Notes: generated from the sequence alone by a model not told the origin. Positions 7,417-63,520 are shown, counted from the stretch's first letter. The stretch is DNA of 64,000 bases from Candidatus Stoquefichus sp. (GCA_021768625.1 JAETUM010000004.1:11738-75737), one strand, 5' to 3'. Numbers and translations are program-made.

Positions 7417-7561
7417 AAAATTGATTTTTGTAAGCGTTTTTTTACAAAAAATGAAGTATTGAAATATTTTTCTCGATGATAGTTGTTTTGCTGCTAAAAA
7501 ATGCAACTTATTTCTTTTTATTGAGAAAATAAAAAAGTAAAAAATATATGGAGGGAAAAAA

Positions 7562-46389: not shown

Positions 46390-47499
46390 TTGACTGAAAT
46401 AAAGAAGGAAAAATCAATACAGATGAGTCTGTTTGATTATTTTATTGATTCTGGAGCATTTACTTTACAACAGGCCAATGAGTGTGTTTTAGAACACTAT
46501 CAAAGAGATGTTAAAATTCCAAGTATAAGAGCAAGAATTTATGAGGGGATTGATAAAGGACTATTCAAAAGATTAGAAAAAGGTGTTTTTATTGCTAATA
46601 CTGAGAAAAATGCTTGTTTGCTTGTACAAGGTAATGGTAGAGATTTAAGTATGCTTGATGATGATAGTGTTGATGCAATTATATGTGACCATCCATATGA
46701 TTTGAGAAAATCACACGTTGGTGGTAACAGACAATTGATTGATTATGATTGTTTTAAGTATGATGTGAGTGATTTTGAACAGAAGTACAGAGTATTGAAA
46801 CCTGGTGGTTTTTTGATTGAAATGCTTCCAGAAAGAAATGCAGATAACATTGAATATTTAAATGAAATATTGAATATAGCAAAGAAATGCAATAGAGCAG
46901 ATAAGATGAAAGGTTTTGAGCTGTATGCAATTGTGCCATGGAAAAAAGGAGACTTTGTCATTAACCAGGGAAGAAAGAGTAAGAATACAGAAGATATGTA
47001 TTTTTTTACAAAAGGTAAAGCTAGAAATTTAAAGTTGGATAACAAAAAGAATTTGTCAATTGCTAAAAATTTAAATTTAAAGATTCCATCTACAAAGTCT
47101 GAAGATGTCGCTAATGCTTTAATTAAAGCTGGTATAGAACCATTTTATATGAGTGGTACAAATGGTATGTTGCCAACAGAATTTGATTATCAGCCAGCTT
47201 CAACTAAAGAAAAAATACATAAAGCAGAAAAACCAGTAGAATTATTTGAAGACATTATAAAATATGTATCTCTTGAAAATGAGTTGATTTTAGATCAATA
47301 TGCAGGCTCTGGGAATTTGGGTAAGGCAGCTTTAAATACAAATAGAAATGCTATACTTATAGAGCAAGATAAACAGACATTTGAGAAAATCATAAGTTCA
47401 TATGAAGAATTTGATACACTTGTAGATATTGCTGAAGATTGTATTTTTCTAAATAAAGATGTTCAGGATGAAGATGAAATGATAATGGGAATAAATTGA
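46390..47499 (+). CDS. orphan beta-class (motif IV before motif I) N6-adenine/N4-cytosine DNA methyltransferase
   Basis: Motif IV variant AIICDHPYD (DPPY-like) is N-terminal. Motif I LDQYAGSGNLGKAAL, preceded by EKPVEL, is C-terminal. No cognate restriction gene is adjacent. TTG start; ATG 46423 is an alternative. Confidence 0.75.
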   Translation: MTEIKKEKSIQMSLFDYFIDSGAFTLQQANECVLEHYQRDVKIPSIRARIYEGIDKGLFKRLEKGVFIANTEKNACLLVQGNGRDLSMLDDDSVDAIICDHPYDLRKSHVGGNRQLIDYDCFKYDVSDFEQKYRVLKPGGFLIEMLPERNADNIEYLNEILNIAKKCNRADKMKGFELYAIVPWKKGDFVINQGRKSKNTEDMYFFTKGKARNLKLDNKKNLSIAKNLNLKIPSTKSEDVANALIKAGIEPFYMSGTNGMLPTEFDYQPASTKEKIHKAEKPVELFEDIIKYVSLENELILDQYAGSGNLGKAALNTNRNAILIEQDKQTFEKIISSYEEFDTLVDIAEDCIFLNKDVQDEDEMIMGIN

Positions 47500-50166: not shown

Positions 50167-52035
50167 ATGATTAAATTAACTAGAAAAGAAAAAGCTCGAA
50201 GAACAACCATTGTTCCAGCTGGTTTTAAAGCAAAAGAAGACTGTATTGTGATAGGTGAGAAATACAAACAAGTTCTAACCTTTTTTAAATATCCTGATGA
50301 ATTTGTAGAGGGTTTTTTAGCAAGTATGGTAACTTCACCCCACTATGCATTGGATTTGAAAATTTCACATGCTGATGATTTAGATGAAGCAAGTGCCTTA
50401 AAGTCACAGTTGTCAGAGAAAAAAGATAAATATAAGAATTCTAAAGATGATGTAGAAAAACAAACACTATATAATGAGATTATGTCACTTGAAAACTATA
50501 TAAATATGCTTGTAGGAAGTCATCGTTCAACATTAAATGTATCAACCCAAGCCTATGTTACAAATGTTTCAAAAAGCGAATTAGAAAAGAAAGTACAAGA
50601 TATTAAAAATGATTTCTCTAAAGGATCTACAGCGATTACACTTAGAAATATTAAATATATTCAAGAGGGGCTTTATAAAAATAATTCTCCTCTTTTTATT
50701 AAACCAGGATTAAGAAAAGAAGTGGCTTATTCCAATGGACAAATCATGTCGAGCTTGTCATGTGCAGGACTATGGCCATTTATATATAATACGCTTGAAG
50801 ATCCTGAAGGAAAATTAATTGGTAGAGAATTAACAAATGGAGGAAAGATTATCTTTAATCAATTTTTGTATAAGAATTATAAAGAATTAGCACAAATACA
50901 AGGAAGACCCAATGGTAATATGATTGTTGTTGGTCGTTCTGGAATGGGAAAAACAACAATTATGGTTTTGTTGCTAATAGACCACATCATACATCATAGA
51001 TATATTATATGGATAGATCCGGAAAATAAAAACCGTAATCTATGTAATGCTATTGGTGGAAATTATATTGAAATAGGGATTGGTGGACAATTAATTAATA
51101 TTTTTGATCTTAAGCCAATTACTACTGAAGAGAATGAAATAGAAGCAAAAGATATTATGTATGATACACAAACAGCTATATTTAATGTTGTTGAGGAAAT
51201 AAAAACGACATTTGAAACATTATGGCCAAAAATAAGCGAAAATGAATTAGCAATGATAGGAGAAATAACAGTAGAGACATATAAATCGGTTGGTATAGAT
51301 GGTTATGAGAGTTTTGAACATTATAGTCCTGAAGATTATCCTACGTTTACTAATTTTACTGCAACTATTAAACAGAAAATAGAAATGTATTCAAAAGAAG
51401 CAGAAATATATAAGTTAGAGATTTCTGCTTTAAAAAAATTAGAGTTGAAAATGAGACAAATTACTGGATACGCAGATGTGCCTGGTGAATGGGGAAGGTA
51501 CTTTAATGGAATTACTACAATAAAGAAAGAAACCTTAGAGAAAACAAGGATGATAGCTATAGGAACTAAACATTTATTTCATGCTCATCCAAGGCTTAAA
51601 AATGCTTTATTAAGACAGATATTTAAATTTTCAGAATCAATGTGCCTAGATGAAAACGAAGAAAGTGTATTGTGCATTGATGAAGAGCATATGTTCATTT
51701 CAGAAGAAATTTTAGCAGATGTTCTAGGGACACTTCAGAGAAGGGTTAGAAAATATAATACAGTTACTTTAACAGGAACACAACAAGTTATTGATTATGC
51801 TTCTCCGAAAATCTTAACACATGGGAAGGCTATTTTTGATAATGCGATATATCAATTCTATATGAATCTAACAAAAGATGGAGTTACAGATTTAAGCAAA
51901 TTAGTAACATTGACAGATGAAGAAAAATTGAGATTGCAATCATTGAGTCCTCATACAGGACTGTTCTTTTGTGGGCAAAAAAGAATACCACTTGAAGTCC
52001 TTGCGACAGATGCTGAGCTTAGTTTAATGCTTTAG
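50167..52035 (+). CDS. VirB4/TrsE/PrgJ-like T4SS ATPase
   Basis: Walker A VVGRSGMGKTT, Walker B VLCIDEEH. 622 aa. N-terminal FKYPDEFVEGFLA motif is typical of the family. Confidence 0.85.
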   Translation: MIKLTRKEKARRTTIVPAGFKAKEDCIVIGEKYKQVLTFFKYPDEFVEGFLASMVTSPHYALDLKISHADDLDEASALKSQLSEKKDKYKNSKDDVEKQTLYNEIMSLENYINMLVGSHRSTLNVSTQAYVTNVSKSELEKKVQDIKNDFSKGSTAITLRNIKYIQEGLYKNNSPLFIKPGLRKEVAYSNGQIMSSLSCAGLWPFIYNTLEDPEGKLIGRELTNGGKIIFNQFLYKNYKELAQIQGRPNGNMIVVGRSGMGKTTIMVLLLIDHIIHHRYIIWIDPENKNRNLCNAIGGNYIEIGIGGQLINIFDLKPITTEENEIEAKDIMYDTQTAIFNVVEEIKTTFETLWPKISENELAMIGEITVETYKSVGIDGYESFEHYSPEDYPTFTNFTATIKQKIEMYSKEAEIYKLEISALKKLELKMRQITGYADVPGEWGRYFNGITTIKKETLEKTRMIAIGTKHLFHAHPRLKNALLRQIFKFSESMCLDENEESVLCIDEEHMFISEEILADVLGTLQRRVRKYNTVTLTGTQQVIDYASPKILTHGKAIFDNAIYQFYMNLTKDGVTDLSKLVTLTDEEKLRLQSLSPHTGLFFCGQKRIPLEVLATDAELSLML

Positions 52036-52059: not shown

Positions 52060-53079
52060 ATGAAAAAGTTAGTGTCGATATTTATAGGAACTATTCTTAC
52101 AATTGCTATTTTATTATCTTCGTTGATTGGTGGAATATGTGGTAGTGATCAAGAATCAGTTGATCCAGGTAATGATACATTAAGCACTGAAGTTCTTAAT
52201 TATGGACCAACGATTATATTGTATGCTCAAGAATATGAAATGAGTGATTATGTAAATTTAATTCAAGCAGTCATGATGCAAGAATCAGGTGGAAGAGGAA
52301 TGGATCCTATGCAGTCCTCAGAGGGTCCATTTAATAAAAAATATCCCAAGGTTCATAATGGGATTACTGATCCTAATTATTCAATTGAATGTGGAATCCA
52401 GGAATTAAAAAGCTGTCTAAATGCTGCAAAGGTAAGAAGTGCTTCGGACTTAGAAAGGATCTCATTAGCATTACAAGGTTATAATTTTGGAAATGGCTAT
52501 ATTAAATGGGCTGTTAAAAATTATGGTGGCTATTCTAAAAGTAATGCTAAAACATTTTCAAATATGTATAAAGCAAAATTAAATGTTAAAGTGTATGGAG
52601 ATCCTAATTATGTCCCACACGTAATGAGATATTATTCAGTGTTCGGAGAAACAGATATTTCCAAATTAACAGAAGTATCACAAAAAATTCTTGCAATTGC
52701 AAAATCTAAATTAAACTGTCCATATCATTGGGGAAAAAGTGGCCCAGATCAATTTGATTGTTCTGGATTGGTATATTATTGTTTGAGCCACGCTGGAGTT
52801 AAAGGTTCGAGATCAACAGCAAGTGGTTATTCAAAACAGTTTAAGACCATTTCCTATTCTTCATTACAACCAGGAGATTTAATTACAATTTCCTATGATG
52901 GAAAAACAGTTTCGCATATTGGTATTTATGCAGGTGATGGAAAAATGATACATGCTTCAGGAGAAGGTTCAACATGTTTAGGAAATCATGTTGAAAGAGG
53001 TCATGTTGTAAAATATGGTGATGTGAGTAAAGGCAGTTTCTTTTTTAAACATATTTATAACTGTAAAAGAGTTCAATAA
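52060..53079 (+). CDS. bifunctional cell-wall hydrolase (lysozyme/SLT-like + NlpC/P60)
   Basis: N-terminal TM. LIQAVMMQESGGRGMDPMQSSEG (lytic transglycosylase-like). C-terminal CPYHWGKSGPDQFDCSGLVYY...HIGIY...IHAS (NlpC/P60 Cys-His). Typical of conjugative peptidoglycan hydrolases (TcpG/PrgK/Orf14 class). Confidence 0.85.
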   Translation: MKKLVSIFIGTILTIAILLSSLIGGICGSDQESVDPGNDTLSTEVLNYGPTIILYAQEYEMSDYVNLIQAVMMQESGGRGMDPMQSSEGPFNKKYPKVHNGITDPNYSIECGIQELKSCLNAAKVRSASDLERISLALQGYNFGNGYIKWAVKNYGGYSKSNAKTFSNMYKAKLNVKVYGDPNYVPHVMRYYSVFGETDISKLTEVSQKILAIAKSKLNCPYHWGKSGPDQFDCSGLVYYCLSHAGVKGSRSTASGYSKQFKTISYSSLQPGDLITISYDGKTVSHIGIYAGDGKMIHASGEGSTCLGNHVERGHVVKYGDVSKGSFFFKHIYNCKRVQ

Positions 53080-53082
53080 AAC

Positions 53083-53253
53083 GGTATACTTTTCGGTATA
53101 CCTGTGTATTACAGTTTGGTATACCTCTTTAATTACCTCTAAACCCTTGAAAATCAACGTTGTTGATTTGTCCAAATGGATTTTGGTATACCGAGGTGTA
53201 TGACAAAATCCCTTATCCTGCTACAGACAAAACGGTATACCTTTTGGTATACC
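53083..53253. repeat. array of six GGTATAC(C) palindromic boxes plus a 7-bp inverted repeat (candidate oriT / RHH operator region)
   Basis: Boxes at 53083, 53095, 53118, 53185, 53234 and 53246. Two 25-bp modules, AAAACGGTATACTTTTCGGTATACC and AAAACGGTATACCTTTTGGTATACC, lie 151 bp apart. Inverted repeat AATCAAC-GTT-GTTGATT at 53152-53168. Confidence 0.6.
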
Positions 53254-53303
53254 ATTTTGCGGTTTTATGGAATTTATGTTAAAAATGGGAGGAGTGAATT
53301 TTC

Positions 53304-53663
53304 TTGAAAAAGGTATTACAAATTAAAATTGATCATGAAGTATATGAAATGTTTGAATATGTTTATCAAACAGAAAGAGTAAAAGAATCGAAATTAACGA
53401 AGAAAGAAGTTATGGAAAAAATAATTAAATTTTATGTGCAAAATCACTTTATAGAAAGTGGTGATTCAACAGCTCCTTCTAACGCAAGTGTCACTGATGA
53501 AATTTTACTTAAACTATATGAATATGTCTTATTGCTGGTGAAAGCAAATACAAATCTTCCACCAAAAGATGAAGTGGCTAAAATGAAAAAATATGTAGAA
53601 TCTCCATCAAGGTTTGATAAATTCATTAATGAGAAAATTGCAAAAGAAATGAAGAATCAATAA
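53304..53663 (+). CDS. ribbon-helix-helix-like protein (candidate relaxosome accessory factor/regulator)
   Basis: TTG start with GGGAGGAG SD. N-terminal KVLQIKIDHEVYEMFEYVYQTE...LTKKEVMEKIIKFY fits a beta-strand/helix/helix RHH layout. Confidence 0.45.
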   Translation: MKKVLQIKIDHEVYEMFEYVYQTERVKESKLTKKEVMEKIIKFYVQNHFIESGDSTAPSNASVTDEILLKLYEYVLLLVKANTNLPPKDEVAKMKKYVESPSRFDKFINEKIAKEMKNQ

Positions 53664-53727
53664 AGAAGGTGATAGTATTTCTAAGACGAACAAAAGTTAT
53701 AGAGTAACTGATAACTTCATAAAAAAA

Positions 53728-53949
53728 ATGAAGTTGATTGAAGATTGGTACAAGGAATCAGGAGTACAAAAAAATAAGGCTGAGTTGTTGGATGAGATGA
53801 TTGATTTATATTATGTTCATTTATTTTCTAATGAAGATGTTTTAGCAGCACAAGTTCATGTGTTATGTGTTAATCTATTAAAACAAGTTAATGAACAAAA
53901 TGCAATTTTTTATAATTCGATTTTAGAAGAAATAAAAAAATCTCTCTAA
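53728..53949 (+). CDS. small hypothetical protein (possible second RHH-like accessory factor)
   Basis: 73-aa ORF. The frame is open upstream to 53669 (…KSYRVTDNFIKKMKLIEDWY…) but has no canonical start there. Confidence 0.4.
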   Translation: MKLIEDWYKESGVQKNKAELLDEMIDLYYVHLFSNEDVLAAQVHVLCVNLLKQVNEQNAIFYNSILEEIKKSL

Positions 53950-53976
53950 TCTATCTGGCAGAATTGCCAGATAGAT
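53949..53976. repeat. variant palindrome (ATCTATCTGGCA-GAAT-TGCCAGATAGAT) sharing the TGGCA...TGCCA core
   Basis: 12-bp perfect arms. Starts at the last base of the stop codon at 53947-53949. Confidence 0.8.
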
Positions 53977-54006
53977 ACATGAAAAAAATAGGAGGTGTTT
54001 AAGAAG

Positions 54007-55041
54007 GTGGGAATTGAAGAATTTTTTAAATATATTACGCAAGTACCTTTATCAAATATTGATTTTCCTATAACAATAAATAATGTTAAGCCAAATGAAA
54101 GTTTGAATTATTCTTTGTCTATAACTTCATTGTTTTCTTTTTTACTGTTGAAAGATTATATGTTTTATCCTAAAATAATGTATAATGGTGATATATTAAT
54201 AACAGGAGAGAATGATATGAAAGAAAAATTATATTATTTTAGAATTCCTTATAATTCAAGAGAAAAGTATATTGATATTGTTTATGATGTTAATAACATG
54301 ATTTCTCATTCTGGATATTGTGAATTAAATGTTAATAACATTCCAGGTCATTTAGACTCAATACTTGCTTTTATTGATGGTGAAAATAACGTGAGTAAAA
54401 TCAGACAATATTTAATATCTAATGGTATTTATTTATGTGAAGATATGACATTCAAAGATTTAATGATTGCTAAATCAAAAAAACAATGGTCAGGAACTAC
54501 TCTTGTTCCTAATATGCCTAAAAATGAGATAGAAGAAATTTTTGGATACTTATATTTTTTTAAAAGTGATGAACAATTACAACAAGATGGTTATTCTTTC
54601 GAAAAAGAATATAAGCCTAAAGTTTTTATTTCTTATTCATGGAAGGACGATAATTATGTTAAAGAGTTTGCAGATATATTAATGGCTTCAGATATTAATA
54701 TCTGGATAGATAAGAAAGATATAGAGGGTGGAAATCATATTTTGCAAAGCATTATGGAAGGAATAGAAGAATGCGATATGGCAATCTTTTTTATAAGTAA
54801 TGCTTTTAAAAACTCTATTATTGGGAAACGTGAACTAGTAACATTCTTCACTAATGTTACTTTGGGTAAAAAACAGTGGAGAATATGTAAAATTGATGAT
54901 GTTGATCCTGATGATATCTTTCCTTCTTTAAGTCAATATAAGTATATTGAATGGCAGAATAGGGAAGAATTGTTAGAAAGTGTATATAGAGGAATAGATA
55001 AAATAAAGGAACAACACAAAATAAAAAAACACAATTTCTAA
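54007..55041 (+). CDS. TIR-domain protein with ~200-aa unknown N-terminal domain
   Basis: C-terminal KVFISYSWKDDNYVKEFADILMASDINIWIDKKDIEGGNHILQSIMEGIEECDMAIFFISNAFKNSIIGKRELVTFF follows the bacterial TIR pattern (FISYS, W.D, the conserved Glu in ...RE(L)...). GTG 54007 is preferred over the track GTG 53995, which overlaps the AGGAGG SD. Confidence 0.7.
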   Translation: MGIEEFFKYITQVPLSNIDFPITINNVKPNESLNYSLSITSLFSFLLLKDYMFYPKIMYNGDILITGENDMKEKLYYFRIPYNSREKYIDIVYDVNNMISHSGYCELNVNNIPGHLDSILAFIDGENNVSKIRQYLISNGIYLCEDMTFKDLMIAKSKKQWSGTTLVPNMPKNEIEEIFGYLYFFKSDEQLQQDGYSFEKEYKPKVFISYSWKDDNYVKEFADILMASDINIWIDKKDIEGGNHILQSIMEGIEECDMAIFFISNAFKNSIIGKRELVTFFTNVTLGKKQWRICKIDDVDPDDIFPSLSQYKYIEWQNREELLESVYRGIDKIKEQHKIKKHNF

Positions 55042-55051
55042 TTTATATAAA

Positions 55052-55067
55052 ATGGCAATATTGCCAT
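55052..55067. repeat. element palindrome copy (ATGGCAATATTGCCAT)
   Basis: Perfect 16-bp palindrome with AAA/TTTT flanks, 11 nt after the TIR gene stop. Confidence 0.9.
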
Positions 55068-55147
55068 TTTTGCTTTAACCAATAGCAAGTAAAATAAAAT
55101 TGGCAGGTTCTATAAGTTGTAATAACGTCAACTAAAAACTGTTTTGA

Positions 55148-55173
55148 GGATCTCATTAAAGAGATCCTTTTTT
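55148..55173 (+). terminator. intrinsic terminator immediately upstream of the SD of the ToxN-like gene
   Basis: Stem GGATCTC / GAGATCC, loop ATTAAA, T6. AAGGAGG SD follows directly. Confidence 0.65.
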
Positions 55174-55184
55174 AAGGAGGAAAT

Positions 55185-56000
55185 ATGAAACAGTTAGAAC
55201 TATTAGATGTTCCAGAATCTGCTATGGAAATTTTACAATCAAAAGGTTTTTGTATAAGTAGTAAAGAAGATAAGTTTATTGTTACTTATAATTGCTCTAA
55301 AGAAACATTGAAATTTAAAAATAAAAAAGAAATTTCATTTTGGGTTAATAATTACTTATATTATTATTTCACTTATGAAAAATATAATTTATTTATAAAT
55401 AATAAATTAAACCTGGATGATTGTTTAAAGTATTATAAAAATGTTGTTGATTTTAATCGATATGTTAATAATGATGAATTAAATCATCTTATAGATGAGA
55501 TAGAAGTATATATATCTAAAATAATAAATGATTATCAAAAAGAAATTAATAAGCGTATAAGAATTGAACCATTTTATTTTTATTTATTAGATGAAGAAAT
55601 TTATAACAAAGATTATCCAAAATTGTATCCTAAGAAAAGTACAAGGCCTTTTCTTTTGTATAAAAAAGAATTGGACAGTAATATTCTTTGGTTGATACCA
55701 ATATCTAGAGCACCAAACAAGAAGTATGAAAAACTTCTTAGCAATGAGAAAAAAGCTATTATAAAATATTCAATTGTGAAAACAAGTTGTTATATTTTAA
55801 TTCAAAATATAATTCCTATAAATGAAAAGTATATTAAATCAAGGTTTTTATATAATGGTATTCACATACATATTAAGAATAAAGAAGTAATGAGAAATAT
55901 TCATAAGAAAGCAGAGAGAACTCTTGCTATGATTAAATACGATAAATATTATTTTTCTAGCGAGATAAAAAAGATGTATTTATCTCAAAGTGAAAAGTAA
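55185..56000 (+). CDS. protein with C-terminal ToxN/AbiQ-like (type III toxin endoribonuclease-like) domain and ~130-aa N-terminal extension
   Basis: Residues ~130-270 (FYFYLLDEEIYNKDYPKLYPKKSTRPFLLYKKELDSNILWLIPISRAPNKKYEKLL...CYILIQNIIPINEKYI) parallel the remembered ToxN/AbiQ layout (FYTIS.KYI.YL...KAFIGIVLEI....YLAPLTSPKK...LINLKFMIPI.E). Pattern match by eye only. Confidence 0.4.
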   Translation: MKQLELLDVPESAMEILQSKGFCISSKEDKFIVTYNCSKETLKFKNKKEISFWVNNYLYYYFTYEKYNLFINNKLNLDDCLKYYKNVVDFNRYVNNDELNHLIDEIEVYISKIINDYQKEINKRIRIEPFYFYLLDEEIYNKDYPKLYPKKSTRPFLLYKKELDSNILWLIPISRAPNKKYEKLLSNEKKAIIKYSIVKTSCYILIQNIIPINEKYIKSRFLYNGIHIHIKNKEVMRNIHKKAERTLAMIKYDKYYFSSEIKKMYLSQSEK

Positions 56001-56009
56001 ATTATAGAA

Positions 56010-56025
56010 ATGGCAAAGTTGCCAT
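56010..56025. repeat. element palindrome copy (ATGGCAAAGTTGCCAT)
   Basis: Perfect palindrome ending 24 nt upstream of ATG 56050. Confidence 0.9.
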
Positions 56026-56049
56026 TTTTTATATAAGGAGAAATTTAAA

Positions 56050-57213
56050 ATGAAAATTGGAACATTTAGATTTGCAGAATACGGAAAACAAGCTCCTAAA
56101 AATTCACGTTTTAAAGGAACTATAGATACAGAATCTTTACTAGGGTGGAGTGAATATACTGATAGAGAGGAAGCTAAGGATCATGAGAAGGAATTGAATA
56201 AGAGAGATGATGGTTTTTTTGGGTATACTCAATCTCATACTCTAGAAAAAACAATGAGTTCAATTGGATTTATAGAACATGGTGAAAACGAAAAAAGAAA
56301 AGAGTTTAGAAAAATGATTGCAGCATCATTTCATAAGAAAGGAAATCTCTTTTTTGATACTGTTATTAGTGTTGAGAATTTTGCGGAATTAGAAGAGTGT
56401 GGAATTCGTTCTGTAGAAGATTGGAATATTATTGTCAATAATGCAATGAAGAAATTTATTAAAACATTGGATTTGGATTATCAAAATATTATCTGGTGGG
56501 CTGACTCACATAATAATACAGAAAATCCACATATACATCTTACATTCTTAGAAAAAGAACAAACAAGAACTAGAGGGAAAATAACACCAGAACAATTAGC
56601 AGCGTTCAAAAGATATTTCTTTACAGAAATATCTGCACGAAAAAAATTAGAGAAAGAATTTAAGAAACCATATCAAGAGGTTTTTAAAGATAAAGATATC
56701 CAATTTAAGGAAATCCTTAATAATGCAGATAATGTTTTATCAAAGAATAAAGTAACTCTTAACAATTTATATAGATATTTACCAAAACAAGGAAGATTAC
56801 AATATAACTCATATAACTTTAAACCTTATAGACATTATATTGATGATATTATTAATGATATTATTTTAAAAGATAAAGATGTACAAAAATCACTTGATAA
56901 ATGGATGAATACATTAGAAATGTTTGAACAGATTATTAATGACAATGCTCATGATATAGCTACAATCAAAGAAGCTGAAATGAAAAAGTTGTATGAACAG
57001 ATTGGAAATAAAATATTAAAGTATTACAAAAAATCAAATTATATTGAGGTAATTAAAAAGGGAAAGAATGGTAAGACATATCATAAGCTCATTAAAAAAA
57101 GAAAAATCACAAGAAATAGTCTTGCTTATGATATAAGTAGATCAGCTGAAAATGAAAGTTATAGATTAGAATTAGAGATAGAGGAGTTTTTAAGAGCATA
57201 TCACTTAAGTTAA
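56050..57213 (+). CDS. conjugative relaxase (MobL-like, His-triad relaxase domain)
   Basis: N-terminal relaxase fold with the HxDxxxPHxH-type metal motif WWADSHNNTENPHIHLTF. Size and basic helical C-terminus are consistent with Firmicutes MobL (pLS20 Rel-type) relaxases. The family assignment is tentative. Confidence 0.7.
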   Translation: MKIGTFRFAEYGKQAPKNSRFKGTIDTESLLGWSEYTDREEAKDHEKELNKRDDGFFGYTQSHTLEKTMSSIGFIEHGENEKRKEFRKMIAASFHKKGNLFFDTVISVENFAELEECGIRSVEDWNIIVNNAMKKFIKTLDLDYQNIIWWADSHNNTENPHIHLTFLEKEQTRTRGKITPEQLAAFKRYFFTEISARKKLEKEFKKPYQEVFKDKDIQFKEILNNADNVLSKNKVTLNNLYRYLPKQGRLQYNSYNFKPYRHYIDDIINDIILKDKDVQKSLDKWMNTLEMFEQIINDNAHDIATIKEAEMKKLYEQIGNKILKYYKKSNYIEVIKKGKNGKTYHKLIKKRKITRNSLAYDISRSAENESYRLELEIEEFLRAYHLS

Positions 57214-57217
57214 TTAT

Positions 57218-57233
57218 ATGGCAAGTTTGCCAT
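57218..57233. repeat. element palindrome copy (ATGGCAAGTTTGCCAT)
   Basis: Perfect palindrome 5 nt after the relaxase stop, ending 24 nt upstream of ATG 57258. Confidence 0.9.
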
Positions 57234-57257
57234 TTTTAGAGATAAGGAGGATAAACT

Positions 57258-58061
57258 ATGAGAAAAAGTAATATTGAATTTGGATATTTTCAAATTAAAA
57301 ATGATGAACATTTATATTTATTGGAAAGTCAAGGTAGCAAAAATATAACTATCTCAAAAACATATGATCAGGTTTCTAATGAAAAAAATGATAAATATGA
57401 ATGGAATGGTCAGTACGATATTGATTATGATGGAATAACAGATATTTATTGTTATATAGATTATGTTGATGATAAAGTAAGTATTGAATTTGTTGAAGGT
57501 TATTCCATTCATGGTTCATCAAGTTCGTATGAGTTGGATTTTGAAAATGACAAATCAACTATAGATTGGATAATTAACAAGGTTACAAAAAATGAAGAAT
57601 TTATTTCTTTTTGTGACACAATAGATAAAATCAACAAGTTGGAAGAAAAGTTATTATTAGAATCTTCTGGAGAAGAGTCAAAATTAAAGTTTTTAGAATA
57701 CACTGAAGGCAAAATAGAACCACTTGGGAAAATCATGATTAATGATGATAATAAGCTAGTTAATGATGCTAAAGAAGAACATACTGATTATAATGTGATA
57801 ATGACAGGAAGAATTCGAGATTATGGCTTATGTAAAATATTAGATAATTCTATAAATGGTGGGGAATCACTGTTATTGGTTACAGAGGAAAATAACATAT
57901 TAGATAACCCAATGATAGATGCCACAATATATACTGCAAGAATGGAATTTGATAAAATTGATCCAGCTTATGTTCAACTGGTTTTAGAATATTGGAATGA
58001 ATGTGGTATGGAATCATTAATACAAGAAGAAAATGAATTAGAAAATTCATTGATTTTATAA
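57258..58061 (+). CDS. acidic hypothetical protein
   Basis: 267 aa, D/E-rich. AAGGAGG SD. Lies between the relaxase and coupling protein genes. Confidence 0.6.
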   Translation: MRKSNIEFGYFQIKNDEHLYLLESQGSKNITISKTYDQVSNEKNDKYEWNGQYDIDYDGITDIYCYIDYVDDKVSIEFVEGYSIHGSSSSYELDFENDKSTIDWIINKVTKNEEFISFCDTIDKINKLEEKLLLESSGEESKLKFLEYTEGKIEPLGKIMINDDNKLVNDAKEEHTDYNVIMTGRIRDYGLCKILDNSINGGESLLLVTEENNILDNPMIDATIYTARMEFDKIDPAYVQLVLEYWNECGMESLIQEENELENSLIL

Positions 58062-58083
58062 CAAACTATCTATATTAAACAAC

Positions 58084-58099
58084 ATGGCAAACTTGCCAT
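58084..58099. repeat. element palindrome copy (ATGGCAAACTTGCCAT; arms extend to 14 bp, 58077-58106)
   Basis: AAACAACATGGCAA-AC-TTGCCATGTTGTTT. Confidence 0.9.
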
Positions 58100-58128
58100 G
58101 TTGTTTTATTTAAAGAATGGAGAAATTT

Positions 58129-60147
58129 ATGAAGAAGTTAACACAGATTATTATTGCTACTATTATATCAATGGTTTTGATATATTTTCTTGGAATTCAA
58201 TTTATAAATATGTGGGTTTATAAAAAATTTAATATAAGTTATGACTATTCATTGTTATTTTTTAGGGGAAATTTATATTTCTTAATATTAACCTTTCTTT
58301 CTACTATACCAGCATGGTGTATATTTTTTAATGATATTTTTAGAAAGAAAATAAAATATAACAATTCTTACAGTACAATGCAAAGTCAGAGGGATATAAA
58401 AAAGAATCTAATTCTTATTCATTTTAATAGAAATGGACTTTATATAACTCCTTTAGATAAAATAAAAATACTAAAAAATGAGATGAAATTGAATTTGGAA
58501 AAAAGTTTTTATAATTTTTATTTAAATAATGAATCCTTATATTGGTTGCATTTACAAGATATAAAATTTAAAAAAATGAAAAAATATAAGGTCGGAGATG
58601 AAGAAACCTATTTTAGAACAGGATTACCAATAATTACTAAGACAGGAAAAATATGGTGTGATCCAACAGACAGTCATTCTTTGATTGTTGGAACAACTAA
58701 TTCTGGTAAAACATTTAGTATTATACTTATACTTATTCAATTAACACGTTTAGCAAAGCAATCCGCTGTTATAGTTGATGTTAAAGGGGAGTTATCAAGG
58801 ATGACTGCTCAAGATTTTATAAATGATGGCTATACAACATATTTTATTGACTTTATAACACCTGAAAGTAGTGATTGTTGGAATCCATTACATTTAGCAG
58901 CCATTGAATGGAAAAAAGAGAATGAAAGAATTGAAAAAGAAAAAGCGAGAATAGTGGAATTACTAAATGAGAAAGAAAAGATACATCATTTACATTATGG
59001 TGATAGTATACCATTTGATCCATATAAAGCTATAGGAAACAATGAGAATGGCGATCCTTTAATTAACCCAGTAACTGGAGAAATTTTAACATATCCAGAT
59101 TATTCAAAAGCAAGTGAATATATTATAGATGTATGTAATTCGATTTGCGATGATCCAACCGCAAAGGAAAAGGTATGGAATAATATGGCTAGTAGGTTAA
59201 TGAGAGGTATTATCTACTTATTAATGGAAGAGGGAAATGAAGAATTTATCAATTTTGAATCAGTAAAAAGGATTTTGGATTTAGGAGATTTGCCTATTCC
59301 TGGTACTAAAAGTACTTACTTAAAAGAATATGTATATAAATACAGAAAAGCAGGTGATTTATCTTATGAAACACTAAGTGAATATTTAGAAGCTCCAGCG
59401 ACAACTAAAAACTCTATTAAGAGTGTTTTTGGTGAAAGGATTGATGCAATAATTTTATCTCAACAGATTAAGAATATGACAGCTAAAAATGATATAGACT
59501 TTGAAAATATTGGCAATAAAAAAACAGTTATATTTTTAAAGGTACATGATGAAAAATCAACATATTATCCTTTGGTTAATTTATTTATGAGACAATTTTG
59601 TGAGGTGCAGATAAAATTAGCAAGAAAAAATCCTAAAGAAAGATTAAGAGTACCAATCGATATTATTTGGGATGAGTTTGGAAATTCACCAACATATGAA
59701 GGAATAAAAAACCTTTTGACAGCAGGAAGATCAAGAGGTATTAGAGTGACAATGGTTATACAAGGATATGACCAATTAAATGAAAAGTATGGGGATAATG
59801 GAGCTAAAACAATAAAAAACAACTGTATGAATACAGTTTATCTATTAAGTGGAGACAATATGACATTGAAAGAGATAAGTGATAGATGTGGTACCAAGAA
59901 AGTTTATAGAAATGGAAAAGAAGAAAATGAACCAGTTTTTACAATTGACAGATTGTCTCACTTTAAATTAGGAGAAGCATTGTTTTTAAGACAGAGGGAA
60001 AATCCTTTTTTCACAAAACTAAAAGCCTATGATAAATATAGAATTTATAAAAGAGAAGCAAATTATGTAGGACAGCCAAAACCTAAGCCTATAGCAAAAG
60101 GCTGGGATATAAAAAAAGCATATGCTTTTAAACAATTTAAAAAGTAA
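58129..60147 (+). CDS. type IV coupling protein (VirD4/TraG/PcfC-like)
   Basis: Two N-terminal TM helices. Walker A VGTTNSGKT, Walker B IIWDEFGN. ATG 58129 is preferred (GGAGA SD 5 nt upstream) over 58117. Confidence 0.85.
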   Translation: MKKLTQIIIATIISMVLIYFLGIQFINMWVYKKFNISYDYSLLFFRGNLYFLILTFLSTIPAWCIFFNDIFRKKIKYNNSYSTMQSQRDIKKNLILIHFNRNGLYITPLDKIKILKNEMKLNLEKSFYNFYLNNESLYWLHLQDIKFKKMKKYKVGDEETYFRTGLPIITKTGKIWCDPTDSHSLIVGTTNSGKTFSIILILIQLTRLAKQSAVIVDVKGELSRMTAQDFINDGYTTYFIDFITPESSDCWNPLHLAAIEWKKENERIEKEKARIVELLNEKEKIHHLHYGDSIPFDPYKAIGNNENGDPLINPVTGEILTYPDYSKASEYIIDVCNSICDDPTAKEKVWNNMASRLMRGIIYLLMEEGNEEFINFESVKRILDLGDLPIPGTKSTYLKEYVYKYRKAGDLSYETLSEYLEAPATTKNSIKSVFGERIDAIILSQQIKNMTAKNDIDFENIGNKKTVIFLKVHDEKSTYYPLVNLFMRQFCEVQIKLARKNPKERLRVPIDIIWDEFGNSPTYEGIKNLLTAGRSRGIRVTMVIQGYDQLNEKYGDNGAKTIKNNCMNTVYLLSGDNMTLKEISDRCGTKKVYRNGKEENEPVFTIDRLSHFKLGEALFLRQRENPFFTKLKAYDKYRIYKREANYVGQPKPKPIAKGWDIKKAYAFKQFKK

Positions 60148-60165
60148 CGATATGGAGGAAAAAAC

Positions 60166-61323
60166 ATGATAGAAGAGTTATTGGAGCAGTATAATATAAC
60201 CTATTTAGGTTATCAAAACTTAGATGAGTCAATATTAAAGAAATTAGACAGAACAAAAATACATAGACTAACAAAAGAAAGCAATTGTTTAATTATGGAG
60301 AATTACAGTGAAGAGAAGGATTCTCTTTTTCTTAAAGATTCAATCTTAAAGTCAATGAAGATAAGTAATACTCGAATTAAACAAGCTATATTTATAAATT
60401 GTAAATTTGATGATACTGTTATAGCAGAATCGTCATTTGCGAATGGTATATTTATAAATTGCTATTTTAAATACATTATGTTTGATAAGGTTAATTTAGA
60501 ACACGCAAAAATGGTATATTGCCATTTTGAATCGTGTAGTATGACTAGATGTAAATTAAATTACTCTCATTTTTTTAAGAGTGACTTTGAAAAAATAGAA
60601 ATTGAAAAGGACCATAATCATCCGAAGTTCAGTGAAACAAAGGATATGATTATAGAAAATAGTGTAGATAAAGAAAATATAGAAAAAAAAGAGGTAGAAA
60701 ACATGAAGGCAGATAAAAAAACTAATATTATAGAAAATAAAATTTTTGAAAGTGACTATCAAATTGAAAGTGATATGATTTATAATCATTGTACATTCAA
60801 TGAAACAAATATTGAAAAAATAAATGTGAGTACAGATTTCCAAGATTGTGTCTTTAATAATACAACTTTTAATGGTGAATTTTATAAAGTTGCATTTTCA
60901 TTAAGTAAATTTAATGATTGCATATTTTCGGGCTATTTTTCAAAATGTTTTTTTGATAATTGTAAATTTAATGATACAAATAAGTTTGAAAAAATACATT
61001 TTTTACAATGTGATTTTTCTCGAGCTGATATACCAAATCAAATTATGGATGTTATTAAAGAAAAGTCGTCTTACTCAATCTTTGATGTTGCACCTCATAA
61101 AAAAGAGGATAATGAATTTGAAAATATGATTAAGCCTATATTTGAAAAATTCCAAAAATATAAAATGGAAATTGATGAGTTACAAAATAAAATAATAGAG
61201 AAAAAGGATATTATTGATTATATATCAAAATTAAGTTCTGATGAAAAACTTCAAATTGTTGTTTCTTCTTTAGCTGTTTCTTCTAATAATACTAATACTA
61301 ATAGTAATGATAATGAGATATAA
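60166..61323 (+). CDS. pentapeptide-repeat protein (two repeat blocks) with coiled-coil and N/T/S-rich tail
   Basis: Runs such as FINCKFDDTVIAESSFANGIFINCYFKYIMFDKVNLEHAKMVYCHFESCSMTRCKLNYSHFFKSDF and CTFNETNIEKINVSTDFQDCVFNNTTFNG... follow the A(D/N)LXX-type quadrilateral beta-helix periodicity. Confidence 0.7.
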   Translation: MIEELLEQYNITYLGYQNLDESILKKLDRTKIHRLTKESNCLIMENYSEEKDSLFLKDSILKSMKISNTRIKQAIFINCKFDDTVIAESSFANGIFINCYFKYIMFDKVNLEHAKMVYCHFESCSMTRCKLNYSHFFKSDFEKIEIEKDHNHPKFSETKDMIIENSVDKENIEKKEVENMKADKKTNIIENKIFESDYQIESDMIYNHCTFNETNIEKINVSTDFQDCVFNNTTFNGEFYKVAFSLSKFNDCIFSGYFSKCFFDNCKFNDTNKFEKIHFLQCDFSRADIPNQIMDVIKEKSSYSIFDVAPHKKEDNEFENMIKPIFEKFQKYKMEIDELQNKIIEKKDIIDYISKLSSDEKLQIVVSSLAVSSNNTNTNSNDNEI

Positions 61324-61331
61324 TTGATAGA

Positions 61332-61907
61332 ATGAATTATTTTATAGAAGTGATGGATGGATCTAATTTAACATATTATTTTAGATCCTATTTATTTTCA
61401 AAAGGTTTTAGGTTTAGAAAGAAACAAAAGATATGGCTTTATCAAACACATGACTTAGACTTCATTGGTCAAATTAAATCTTATTGCAAGTCAAATGGAC
61501 TTGTTTGTATTGTTTATACTAGAAATCAGATAAGGAATAGAACATACAGGGAAAACTTTTTTGAGAAAAATCAACCTTTAATAAAGGATTACTATCTATG
61601 TGCATACTGTCTAAAGCCAGTACATAAAAAAAAGATAACTGTAGATCATGTTATTTCTGTAAAAAAAGCAAAAACTAATAAATTGTACCAAAAAATAATG
61701 AAAAAAATGAAAATTAGTAATGTGAATGATGAAAAAAATTTAGTGGCTTGTTGTAGTAGATGTAATCAAAGAAAAGGAAAGAAAGGTGGCTTGTGGGTTG
61801 TAAGAGGTTTTTTAGGCAAACATAAGATATGGCTGTTGTCATGTTATATTTTAATGATATTCTTAATATTTTTAATGATTGTCGTTTTATTCCCAAAAAG
61901 TCATTAA
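61332..61907 (+). CDS. HNH endonuclease with C-terminal transmembrane helix
   Basis: CAYCLKPV...ITVDHVISV...NLVACCSRCNQRKG is an HNH/Cys-box motif. C-terminal IWLLSCYILMIFLIFLMIVVLF is a hydrophobic anchor. Confidence 0.7.
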   Translation: MNYFIEVMDGSNLTYYFRSYLFSKGFRFRKKQKIWLYQTHDLDFIGQIKSYCKSNGLVCIVYTRNQIRNRTYRENFFEKNQPLIKDYYLCAYCLKPVHKKKITVDHVISVKKAKTNKLYQKIMKKMKISNVNDEKNLVACCSRCNQRKGKKGGLWVVRGFLGKHKIWLLSCYILMIFLIFLMIVVLFPKSH

Positions 61908-61948
61908 CATAAAAGTAGATGATAGGATTATGAAGAAAGGGAGTAAAT

Positions 61949-62131
61949 ATGGAATTAACTGAAGAACAAGAGTTTCAAGATGATGTACATGATATTCTCA
62001 GGCATCTTGAAGAAGAAGCGATTTTTATATGTGATAATTCATCAGATAAAATTAATAGACATGTGGAATTAATGCGTATAGGATACTATAAATTATTTAA
62101 TATGCTGAAGTATAATTTAGAAAAGGAGTAA
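61949..62131 (+). CDS. small acidic hypothetical protein
   Basis: 60-aa ORF with AAAGGGAG SD. Confidence 0.45.
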   Translation: MELTEEQEFQDDVHDILRHLEEEAIFICDNSSDKINRHVELMRIGYYKLFNMLKYNLEKE

Positions 62132-62147
62132 ATGGCAATTTTGCCAT
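62132..62147. repeat. element palindrome copy (ATGGCAATTTTGCCAT)
   Basis: Begins immediately after the stop codon at 62129-62131 and ends 31 nt upstream of ATG 62179. Last copy in the window. Confidence 0.9.
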
Positions 62148-62178
62148 TTTTTATATAGAAAGAAGGTGAGGATAAAAT

Positions 62179-63279
62179 ATGAGTAAAAAACTAGATGAAT
62201 TATTTCAAAAATATGCGTATTCAACTCAACAAAAATATCAATTAAGATTGGCTGATGAAAAAAGACTTGATTTGGATATAATTAAAAACCCAAAATATGA
62301 TTGGGAACAAATGCGAGAAATAAGATTGTGTATGGAATACAATATTGATCCTTCTGCATTATGTGATTATAATATTCCATCTGATTCTATGGAAAAGATT
62401 AGAATTCATTTGTTTGAAAAAGCAGGTATTTATAAGGAAAATAATGAAATTATTCAAAGGAAAAGATTAAAACGATTTATATTATGTTTTTTATTGTTAA
62501 TTATGATAAGTGGAACAGCTGCTATTATGTATGTTAATAGAGATTATATTATGTTATATTTTGAAAACATTAATTTTGAACTCAATTGTCAAAAAGTTGA
62601 TATAGGTATTTCTAAAATTAAAAATATTGACTATACTGCTTATATCAAAAATTATGATAAAAAAAACAAACTTATATTACCAAATACTAAAATCAATGAT
62701 ATAGGAAATTATACTGTTACATATAAGATAAAAAATGGAGTAAAAACAAAAGAAGAACATCTTATTGTACACGTATATGATGATATTAAACCAATTATTA
62801 ATTTATCTACAACTTCTCTTGTTATCCAGGAGGGGACAAATATATCTCCTTCAAAATATATTGTTTCTGCTATAGACAATATAGACGGAGATTTAAGAAA
62901 AGATATAAAGATTGAAAGTAATGTAAAGGTGAATGTTCCTGGTAATTATAAAATAGTATATCGAGTAAGGGATACAGAAAAAAATGAAGAAAAAAAGCAA
63001 ATAGTTGTTACTGTTAAAAAGAATGAATCAAGTACAATAAATAATGATTTTCCTGGTTCTTCAAATAAAAAAGATACAAAACAACAAAATAGGCCAATAA
63101 GAAAGACAGCTAAAGATAAAATATTTTATTTTAAAACCATTGGTGATGCTGATAAGATATATAAGCAGGCAGAAAAATATGCTAAATCTATGATTATTTT
63201 AAAGAAAGCAAGAGGGTATGAAATTAAACCTTTTAAAAAGGATAGTATAAATGTCGGATGGAAGGTGTCATTTGAATAG
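62179..63279 (+). CDS. single-pass membrane protein with extracellular Ig-like (DUF5011-type) repeats
   Basis: Cytoplasmic ~95 aa, then TM (FILCFLLLIMISGTAAIMYV), then repeats ...IGNYTVTYKIKNG...HVYDDIKP and ...PGNYKIVYRVRDTEKNEE...VTVKK. Confidence 0.55.
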   Translation: MSKKLDELFQKYAYSTQQKYQLRLADEKRLDLDIIKNPKYDWEQMREIRLCMEYNIDPSALCDYNIPSDSMEKIRIHLFEKAGIYKENNEIIQRKRLKRFILCFLLLIMISGTAAIMYVNRDYIMLYFENINFELNCQKVDIGISKIKNIDYTAYIKNYDKKNKLILPNTKINDIGNYTVTYKIKNGVKTKEEHLIVHVYDDIKPIINLSTTSLVIQEGTNISPSKYIVSAIDNIDGDLRKDIKIESNVKVNVPGNYKIVYRVRDTEKNEEKKQIVVTVKKNESSTINNDFPGSSNKKDTKQQNRPIRKTAKDKIFYFKTIGDADKIYKQAEKYAKSMIILKKARGYEIKPFKKDSINVGWKVSFE

Positions 63280-63361
63280 TGTTTTATAATTGTCATAAAA
63301 AACACTTGCTTTTTTATGAGGTAGGGTGTATCATGTATATGATATTACTATTGATATGTTT

Positions 63362-63397
63362 AAGGAATCAATTTATTGTTGATTCCTTATTTCGTTT
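63362..63397 (+). terminator. intrinsic terminator
   Basis: 10-bp stem AAGGAATCAA / TTGATTCCTT, 7-nt loop, T-rich tail. Confidence 0.6.
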
Positions 63398-63425
63398 AGG
63401 CACTATTATATAGTGTCTTTTTTTA
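63398..63425 (+). terminator. intrinsic terminator
   Basis: Stem AGGCACTA / TAGTGTCT (one G-U), loop TTATA, T7. Confidence 0.65.
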
Positions 63426-63520
63426 TGAAATTACTTATTTTATTTATGTGATATTTACTTATCAATTAAATATTTCAAAATGGTATATGTTGAGCTTTAT
63501 CCTTCAAAAGGAGGAAATAT

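Follow-up and report, generated by a model that had tools for sequence, protein, structure and literature searches.

Type III toxin-antitoxin (TA) systems are defined by tandem RNA repeats and by stand-alone toxins of about 150-170 amino acids (aa). Their layout places a terminator between the antitoxin RNA and the toxin gene (PMC3401426). For CptIN of E. rectale it was found that a single CptI repeat is sufficient for antitoxicity and that the locus stabilises plasmids (PMC4627078). SpbK (YddK) is a single-gene system carried by ICEBs1, an integrative and conjugative element (ICE) of B. subtilis; it joins an N-terminal sensor to a TIR NADase domain, is activated by a phage portal protein, and acts against phages as an NADase not needed for the life cycle of the ICE (PMC11984713). 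Relaxosomes of the pLS20 type require only aux1, aux2 and the relaxase (PMC5675868). We analyzed 64,000 nucleotides (nt) of Candidatus Stoquefichus sp. (GCA_021768625.1, JAETUM010000004.1:11738-75737), called the window below, in which a gene for a TIR-domain protein and a gene for a CptN-like protein lie ahead of the relaxase gene of a conjugative element. Coordinates are counted from the first letter of the window.

We estimate, with a probability of about 0.6, that these genes represent two unrelated accessory modules in an operon of the order oriT (origin of transfer)-aux1-aux2-relaxase-coupling protein, namely an optional TIR gene and a reduced type III locus of the CptIN family. By its architecture the TIR gene seems to resemble SpbK of ICEBs1 most, and we regard the second module as a reduced, N-extended CptIN type III locus. 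An earlier note on this DNA held that the arrangement matched no described system; the CptIN makeup of the second module and the SpbK architecture of the first (PMC11984713) speak otherwise. What is new is the N-extended, single-repeat, relaxase-linked form of CptIN and the TIR family of conjugation clusters, while both protein families and their mechanisms are already known. Locally, a repeat-rich non-coding region is followed by genes for proteins of 119 aa and 73 aa; then come the TIR gene, a spacer of 143 nt, the CptN-like gene and the gene of the relaxase. The features of the two modules are as follows.

53990..55041, + strand: TIR gene, with its own ribosome-binding site (RBS) AGGAGG at 53990-53995 and the likely start codon GTG at 54007; 344 aa
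55066..55116, + strand: single CptI-like antitoxin RNA unit of about 50 nt, a putative H-type pseudoknot
55146..55175, + strand: intrinsic-terminator-like hairpin, with a 9-bp stem GAGGATCTC/GAGATCCTC (55146-55169) and a T-run; -13.5 kcal/mol, z -3.85
55185..55568, + strand: N-terminal domain of the CptN-like protein (residues 1-128), a small sheet and three long helices
55569..56000, + strand: CptN endoribonuclease-fold domain (residues 129-271) and stop codon

The CptN-like protein

The CptN-like open reading frame (ORF, 55185-56000) codes for 271 aa, and the C-terminal 140 aa are a CptN domain of the ToxN superfamily. Residues 132-265 matched the NCBIfam model CptIN (E 1.5e-12, profile positions 3-147 of 150). 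The CptN structure 4RMO in the PDB matched the C-terminal domain by sequence (E 8.8e-9), and the model of the protein (predicted local distance difference test, pLDDT, 86) superposed on 4RMO in Foldseek with a template modelling (TM) score of 0.72 and a root-mean-square deviation of 2.4; MazF and CcdB came next. Across 16 sequences, residues R154, P155, W169, P172, K180, Y181, L205, P211 and I239 were invariant or nearly so. The earlier note had compared this region with ToxN/AbiQ, which is right at the superfamily level; the NCBIfam CptIN and 4RMO matches place it more precisely with CptN.

An N-terminal extension of about 130 aa had also been proposed. It is real, a domain of 128 aa that is continuous in 3 lineages. 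We did not find any family match for it, nor a fold match in the PDB or in BFVD. An exhaustive HMMER scan of 1.84 billion representatives gave 51 CptN-like relatives, and the 128-aa domain was present in only 3 of those clusters; a nonsense-interrupted copy (P0008, locus L015) makes a fourth cluster. The remaining relatives were ordinary proteins of about 150-170 aa. A word-indexed protein search gave 2 homologues of the CptN-like protein. The G+C content of the gene is 0.21, compared with 0.26-0.27 for its neighbours and 0.28 for the whole element.

The RNA unit and terminator in the spacer

The unit at 55066-55116 reads ATT-TTTGC-TTTAA-CCAAT-A-GCAAG-TAAAATAAA-ATTGG-CAGGTTCTATAAG. Stem S1 pairs TTTGC (55069-55073) with GCAAG (55085-55089), and stem S2 pairs CCAAT (55079-55083) with ATTGG (55099-55103). 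The loop TAAAATAAA is A-rich and the tail ends in TATAAG. All 10 of the 10 S1/S2 pairs form; these were counted by script, and a MAFFT alignment had put the unit one column out of register.

The reference set consisted of ten units from five other loci, with the window excluded; their alignment is nearly gap-free and speaks for an H-type pseudoknot: 95% of the cells were paired, 7 of the 10 pairs had changed on both sides, and none of 500 shuffles scored as high. A covariance model (CM R1) built on them holds only one of the two helices, as it is nested. Restricted to the spacer, it placed the window unit first (E 0.0052). Further, we used a custom pseudoknot-aware profile, built from the other loci only, that scores both helices. 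Out of about 128,000 positions it ranked the window unit first, with 23.7 bits compared with 15.5 and 10.8 for the next two. With L017 left out, the genuine units of L017 scored 16.5 and 21.1 bits and the window unit 19.8-25.6 bits. The best off-target matches were at 7487-7533 (+ strand) and about 2451 (- strand), with 15.9 bits from the covariance model without S2 pairs and 15.5 bits from the profile. We take them as chance matches, because neither is within the element or close to a CptN gene. The profile search found no other CptI-like unit in the element, and an Rfam search at E up to 10 returned nothing relevant. A greedy pseudoknot scanner lacked specificity on DNA this rich in AT and gave way to the covariance model and the profile. 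A candidate second unit at 55117-55150 was no better than shuffles (422 of 2000).

The core of the unit (55069-55116) is identical in the sibling element L002, where the T-run ahead of it is shorter by one T, while the synonymous divergence (dS) of the adjacent gene is about 0.24. Conservation of the unit despite 24% synonymous divergence argues for a current function. L002 is the sole other copy of the window unit and, being identical, adds no covariation. The terminator stem is kept in L002 through G-U pairs, and this hairpin stands where type III loci have their attenuator, after the RNA unit and ahead of the RBS of the toxin gene. According to the earlier note, the upstream tandem RNA repeats of type III loci were lacking. 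This is literally true, as Tandem Repeats Finder gave no tandem array in 53000-57000, but the spacer does hold a single CptI-like unit and a terminator.

Relatives of the CptN-like gene

The five closest CptN lineages (window, L002, L015/L016, L009-L014 and L017) all lie within modules of a MobL relaxase or a coupling protein. In L001/L002 the CptN-like protein is 87% identical to that of the window. In L015/L016 it is 58% identical and its gene overlaps the start of the relaxase gene, and in L009-L014 it is 44% identical and its gene ends 14 nt ahead of the relaxase gene. In L017 a toxin of canonical length lies between the genes of the relaxase, a 556-aa MobL protein, and of the coupling protein. 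The L017 product (P0009) is the closest relative of canonical length among the representative clusters. L017 carries a textbook cptIN locus at 7790-8000: a TTGAAA-17-TATAAT promoter, two 41-nt repeats and a terminator are followed by the gene of a 164-aa toxin. Its repeats are imperfect and differ by compensatory changes in both interleaved pseudoknot stems, and loci of other close canonical relatives share this RNA plan.

We compared the two parts of the CptN-like protein between the window and L002. The RNase domain was 98% identical, with a ratio of nonsynonymous to synonymous substitution rates (dN/dS) of 0.034, and the N-terminal domain was 75% identical, with dN/dS of 0.51. Unlike the CptN toxins described so far, that of the window carries an N-terminal domain of 128 aa that evolves fast, and its gene holds a fixed place beside MobL relaxase genes.

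The gene in L015 (1243-2097; also in L016) contains a single in-frame TAA at codon 94. We considered whether the split gene could code for a two-protein system and rejected this, since both ORFs are in one frame, separated by that one TAA. The 5' half of the RNA unit is missing from L015 and an unrelated strong hairpin stands in its place; the relaxase gene beside the interrupted gene is an intact ORF of 389 aa. A nonsense codon in the toxin gene together with a truncated RNA unit is as expected if a TA pair decays together.

The TIR gene

The TIR ORF spans 53995/54007-55041. The GTG at 54007 sits 11 nt after AGGAGG, and this start matches the 344-aa protein (P0003) in public collections. Pfam TIR_2 matched residues 210-322 (E 1.1e-16). 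Matches in PADLOC and NCBIfam covered the TIR part only, and a fold search with the AlphaFold model (pLDDT 67) found TIR structures only. The PADLOC models matched at the level of the TIR domain with E from 6e-13 to 1e-4; the ThsB models among them matched weakly (E 3e-5 or worse). The Glu of the GKRELV motif aligned with the conserved alpha-C Glu in an alignment with TLR15 and was invariant in six TIR lineages. The N-terminal part of about 200 aa gave no family or fold match in Pfam or in PDB and viral fold searches, and a profile of it found no further relatives. There was no ThsA, SIR2 or SLOG-type partner among 10 neighbouring ORFs in PADLOC, nor in Pfam scans.

The earlier note had described a C-terminal TIR domain with the conserved Glu, an N-terminal domain of about 200 aa that it was not able to place, and the lack of a ThsA-like or cyclase-type partner nearby. 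Our results agree on each point; the Pfam and PADLOC scans of the neighbours contained no such partner. The profile- and structure-based annotation that it had proposed upheld both the TIR and the ToxN-superfamily calls and left both N-terminal domains without a match.

A word-indexed protein search gave 4 homologues of the TIR protein. Full-length homologues are encoded in two other metagenomic conjugative elements (L006-L008). Homologues also occur in six plasmids of Enterococcus and Lactococcus, typically after the gene of the cell-wall hydrolase of the type IV secretion system (T4SS) and before the relaxosome genes. The plasmid copies are L101 6602-7801 (E. faecalis pGTC3), L102 6776-7831 (a Lactococcus allomyrinae plasmid) and those in 4 more E. 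faecalis plasmids; the proteins share part of the N-terminal domain (query residues about 65-200) and are annotated merely as TIR domain-containing proteins. The cluster of L102 reads VirB4-lysozyme-hypothetical gene-TIR-SSB...RHH-MobP2, so that the TIR gene adjoins ssb. In all contexts seen, this gene family is on conjugative elements. The TIR gene is optional cargo in a variable slot, and its family favours conjugation clusters.

The TIR and CptN-like genes are independent modules

In L001/L002 the order is aux1-aux2-[37 nt]-CptN-like-MobL, with no TIR gene. Exactly the RBS and ORF of the TIR gene (53990-55041) are replaced in L002 by 37 unrelated nt. In L009-L014 the same slot holds a divergent pair of helix-turn-helix (HTH) genes. 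The slot between aux2 and the CptN-like gene is therefore variable and contains the TIR gene, 37 nt or the HTH pair. The TIR and CptN-like genes occurred together in no lineage but that of the window, and the 8 loci with TIR homologues (2 metagenomic elements and 6 plasmids) had no CptN-like neighbour. The genes are thus not a pair but independent modules, because the TIR gene is absent from L002 and from the 44% identical relatives and the TIR homologues stand without CptN.

The HTH genes of L009 (9126-9988; also in L010-L014) are an Xre-type pair, divided by a series of operator-like ATGTACA repeats. The small HTH gene, whose end is 12 nt ahead of the CptN-like gene, could code for a protein antitoxin or an operon switch.

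The element-wide hairpin

The earlier note had placed a palindrome at 53949, 55052 and 56010 and regarded the TIR and CptN-like genes as cassettes bracketed by it. The copies are present, as the following hairpins.

53949..53976, + strand: long-stem variant of the element hairpin, 12 bp with a TGGCA-GAAT-TGCCA core, without a T-run; -18.8 kcal/mol, z -4.9
55049..55070, + strand: copy of the element hairpin, AAAATGGCA-ATAT-TGCCATTTT and then T's; -9.6 kcal/mol
56008..56027, + strand: copy of the element hairpin between the CptN-like and relaxase genes; -10.8 kcal/mol

The core TGGCA-N4-TGCCA occurs in 13 copies between 23927 and 62146, compared with 0.01 expected by chance. The sites are 23927, 26677, 28534, 30198, 44178, 47518, 49186, 53956, 55053, 56011, 57219, 58085 and 62133, all on the + strand. 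In 12 of the 13 cases the hairpin lies between a stop codon and the following RBS, usually with a T-run; the exception is the first copy (23927), which lies within the 3' end of the listed ORF 23322-24008. Copies also follow the relaxase gene and the gene after it, and at least 10 genes other than the TIR and CptN-like genes are followed by the hairpin. As it is found element-wide, after many genes, the hairpin is not a bracket specific to these two. Both hairpins beside the TIR gene are kept in L002, including the one at 53949-53976, and the breakpoints of the TIR indel are 13 nt past one hairpin and 7 nt short of the other. In an integron-like cassette the site would be lost along with the gene; here the breakpoints lie between the hairpins and not at them. 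The palindrome was therefore rejected as a cassette boundary, and the description of the genes as palindrome-bracketed cassettes fell with it.

The sequence of the hairpin is almost invariant (AAAATGGCAAAsTTGCCATTTT), usually 5-20 nt ahead of the next RBS, and copies in L009 are at 7258, 12185, 14106 and 16202. The core is kept in 44%-diverged relatives, whose proteins are about 45-55% identical. This is more conservation of sequence than a terminator needs, so a recognition site for a protein or RNA, as in antitermination or processing, seems possible. Directly 5' of the RNA unit, the copy at 55049-55070 resembles a weak terminator. Reading the palindrome as a sigma-54 promoter was rejected on inspection, as the GG-to-GC spacing is 7 nt and not 10.

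The element and the relaxase operon

The gene block is a long, co-directional, roughly 40-kb conjugative element of a low-GC Firmicute. It contains T4SS, relaxase and coupling-protein genes, and a 100% identical contig runs on into a tyrosine integrase. After the ParA/ParB genes, the order is thioester/SpaA adhesin, methyltransferase, VirB4, lysozyme/NlpC-P60 hydrolase, relaxase and coupling protein. The related elements come from metagenome-assembled genomes of Erysipelotrichaceae.

about 22-24 kb of the window: ParA/ParB genes, the upstream start of the co-directional block
50167-52035: VirB4 gene, upstream of the oriT region
52060-53079: lysozyme/NlpC-P60 hydrolase gene
53083..53260: likely oriT region, upstream of the aux1-like gene, with four TTTyGGTATACC repeats and a conserved core
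53304..53663, + strand: aux1-like gene, 119 aa, which opens the relaxase operon; position kept in L002 and L009
53728..53949, + strand: aux2-like gene, 73 aa; kept in L002 and L009
56050..57213, + strand: MobL/MobP3-type relaxase gene (Pfam MobL E 4.8e-19, NCBIfam MobP3 E 3.3e-29)
58117-60147: VirD4-type coupling-protein gene, downstream of the relaxase gene

The earlier note had the two genes interrupting an aux-aux-relaxase arrangement. This applies to the TIR gene; the CptN-like gene is itself part of the arrangement in the relatives. The aux proteins gave no match to ribbon-helix-helix (RHH) or other families in Pfam and NCBIfam scans, and dN/dS of the aux2-like gene was 0.24 between the window and L002.

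The region 53083-53260 is likely the oriT, as judged from its position by analogy with oriT-aux1-aux2-rel of the pLS20 type (PMC5675868). Its core comprises 53148-53177, with the inverted repeat TCAAC-GTT-GTTGA, and 53203-53224. When aligned with L009 and L002, the core proved to be conserved in L009, where proteins are only about 45-55% identical; the core sequences GAAAATCAACGTTGTTGATTTGTCCAAA and ACAAAAyyCCTTATCCTGCTA are nearly identical there (8340-8420). The four TTTyGGTATACC repeats flank the core and are specific to the window lineage.

A query of 5.1 kb against plasmid DNA gave no match. L003 is a 57-kb Logan contig, 100% identical to window 53392-64000. Beyond a breakpoint inside the aux1 gene, L003 1-8207 carries phage baseplate and tail genes, a D12 methyltransferase gene and an HTH gene rather than T4SS genes and the oriT; it is a recombinant element or an assembly chimera. 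The element also has an orphan type II DNA methyltransferase gene (46390-47499). Downstream of the coupling-protein gene are genes for a pentapeptide-repeat protein (60166-61323) and a small HNH-like protein (61332-61907; weak PtuB match), a pair conserved in all relatives seen.

Proposed mechanism and points against it

The sequence comparisons establish the domain identities, the layout, the resemblance of the RNA unit to CptI and its conservation, the separateness of the two genes and the synteny; NADase and RNase activity, toxicity, silencing by the RNA and the role in biology are inferred from them. If the TIR protein works as SpbK does, its N-terminal domain would sense an invader protein, the TIR domains would oligomerise and destroy NAD+, and the infection would abort. 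In the CptIN module, read-through transcription from upstream would make one CptI-like pseudoknot RNA of about 50 nt, and the terminator hairpin would limit read-through into the gene of the CptN-fold endoribonuclease. The RNA would bind and silence the RNase. Loss or disturbance of the element or of its transcription would free the presumably toxic RNase, which may result in addiction, abortive infection or both.

A number of observations weigh against the assignment of the modules to the CptIN and SpbK types. The NCBIfam CptIN score was 47.6, below the 90-bit equivalog cut-off. The triad motif is altered (IPISRAP here versus IPLSSRI in CptN): the Ser-Ser/Thr-Arg triad of CptN reads Ile-Ser-Arg or Ser-Arg-Ala, Asp81 of E. 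rectale CptN lies opposite an alignment gap, and Ser85 is replaced by Cys. The RNA unit is single, compared with 1.9-3.4 in described cptIN loci, and its nested fold is weak (-3.7 kcal/mol, z +0.8). Searched window-wide, the covariance model ranked the unit second (11.5 bits, E 2.3), and a chance match scored higher. A consensus scan of the + strand of 54374-55375 found no sigma-70-like promoter, hence none upstream of the unit. The intact CptN-like gene of L009/L014 has no detectable RNA unit, with only 12 nt upstream. The model of the TIR N-terminal domain is of low confidence (pLDDT below 50 for residues 1-73), and its sensor role comes by analogy. As no promoter was recognisable, transcription of the RNA unit must come from upstream; as L009/L014 are without the unit, the RNA is not the universal control of the clade. 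A Ser-Arg/Lys dyad is conserved in the window clade, with the second Ser missing. Tyr104 of CptN is Phe here, and Phe is common at that position in canonical members.

Alternative explanations

The link with the relaxase, the fast-evolving domain and the RNA-less relative bring in two less likely readings, a domesticated role and a shift from RNA to protein control. We find it unlikely that the CptN-like protein was domesticated in the relaxase operon, either as a factor that processes or binds RNA on the hairpin-punctuated transcript or as a regulator of relaxase expression, with the CptI-like unit as an autoregulatory site. Domestication would account for the residence of all five closest lineages in MobL relaxase/coupling-protein modules, for the N-extended form directly upstream of the relaxase gene at 87%, 58% and 44% identity, for the intact L009 lineage without an RNA unit, for the altered triad, for the unit and terminator in the 5' leader of a gene upstream of the relaxase gene and for the 13 conserved intergenic hairpins. 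However, the L015/L016 gene carries its nonsense codon beside an intact relaxase ORF and so is dispensable, pLS20-type relaxosomes need just aux1, aux2 and the relaxase (PMC5675868), the clade includes the textbook TA locus of L017, and nothing ties the protein to the hairpins or gives the element another unit. It is less probable still that the N-terminal domain controls the RNase, as a fused cis-inhibitor antitoxin or a trigger sensor, and that the RNA unit is a type III leftover that is being lost. The perfect conservation of the unit between the window and L002 speaks against this, no fold or family match supports any role for the domain, and the small HTH gene 12 nt upstream in L009 could equally code for a protein antitoxin. 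What such control would explain is the trajectory from two repeats (L017) to one (window) to none (L009, intact with the N-terminal domain), the finding of the domain only fused to this CptN clade, and the difference in dN/dS between the domain and the RNase, of a kind that sensor and immunity interfaces often show. Doubtful, but somewhat less so than either, is that the CptN clade is resident in MobL relaxase operons and caught between control modes, with two covarying repeats in L017, one repeat and a recently acquired, rapidly evolving N-terminal domain in the window and L002, and no RNA in L009, which has that domain or an HTH protein beside it. If true, this series would show a type III toxin passing naturally from an RNA antitoxin to control by protein or in cis, and the transition might couple RNase activity to conjugative transfer or element maintenance.

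With respect to the TIR protein, a service to conjugation, as an establishment or anti-defence factor in the recipient or a weapon against competing elements, is rather unlikely, though a little better placed than domestication of the CptN-like protein. At least six conjugation clusters of Gram-positive bacteria contain homologues with the same N-terminal domain, placed as a rule between the T4SS hydrolase and relaxosome genes, one of these homologues adjoins ssb, a classic establishment gene, and the window gene is just downstream of the likely oriT. Yet the gene is missing from the sibling element, whose operon is the same in other respects, and transfer therefore does not need it; and SpbK, the sole characterised ICE-borne protein with an N-terminal domain and TIR, is an anti-phage NADase dispensable to the ICE (PMC11984713). 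The earlier note had offered two independent cargo defences or, alternatively, one two-gene abortive-infection or addiction unit, and had suggested a survey of co-occurrence in other genomes. Independence of the genes is what L002, L009-L014 and the 8 TIR loci show. A single two-gene unit with each gene a palindrome-bracketed mobile cassette is very improbable. The genes are adjacent and co-oriented, with hairpins on either side of each, and the slot ahead of the CptN-like gene is variable; but the pair was not found outside the window lineage, being without TIR already in the 87% sibling and the 44% relative, the hairpins follow at least 10 other genes, and both persist without the TIR gene, with the breakpoints outside them.

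Significance

The value of the locus lies in new variants and a testable evolutionary series; views of how both protein families work are unchanged. A CptN toxin of this kind, which has an additional domain, one repeat (in a relative, none) and a fixed relaxase neighbour, would widen the definition of type III systems. Repeat-finding screens miss loci such as this one, and it offers a tractable case for how an RNA antitoxin becomes reduced or replaced. The family of the TIR gene is small and uncharacterised; it turns up repeatedly in Gram-positive conjugation clusters, including those of conjugative plasmids of Enterococcus faecalis, and a role of this family in defence or counter-defence would bear on plasmid spread.

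Comparison with known systems

Thoeris ThsB, PDC-S66, bSEFIR and the TIR effectors of CBASS and Pycsar resemble the window protein in the TIR domain. They differ in that the match is limited to the TIR part and the neighbours include no ThsA, cyclase, SAVED or Argonaute gene; the ThsA effector gene that stands beside the TIR gene in Thoeris is thus absent here. SpbK (PMC11984713) is closer. Like it, the window TIR gene stands alone on a conjugative element, with no gene as a partner, and the element can do without it; its product has a non-TIR part at the N-terminus and, at the C-terminus, a TIR domain in which the catalytic Glu is conserved. By architecture it is therefore SpbK-like; the N-terminal domain is 94 aa in SpbK versus about 200 aa here, and the two are likened by architecture, not by sequence.

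The operon resembles the pLS20-type relaxosome oriT-aux1-aux2-relLS20 (PMC5675868, PMC5313138), as a MobL-family relaxase gene follows two small genes and a repeat-rich non-coding region, likewise in one long co-directional conjugation operon. In contrast to pLS20, aux2 and the relaxase gene are separated in the window by a slot of variable content and an additional conserved gene, the CptN-like one; the aux proteins of the window are without an RHH family match.

From CptIN of E. rectale (4RMO; PMC3401426, PMC4627078) the second module differs by one unit instead of 1.9-3.4 tandem repeats of 40-48 nt, by the lack of an own promoter in our scan and by the altered triad motif. Its toxin has 271 aa with a 128-aa N-terminal domain, compared with a described range of 45-213 aa. 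It lies inside a relaxase operon, while the 33 cptIN loci of 2012 were all called chromosomal (PMC3401426). A tandem array is absent, and CptN homology and the terminator are present: the toxin domain is homologous to CptN by sequence and fold, the unit probably follows the S1/S2 H-type pseudoknot plan with an A-rich loop (48-51 nt versus 40-48), and a terminator hairpin separates the RNA from the toxin gene.

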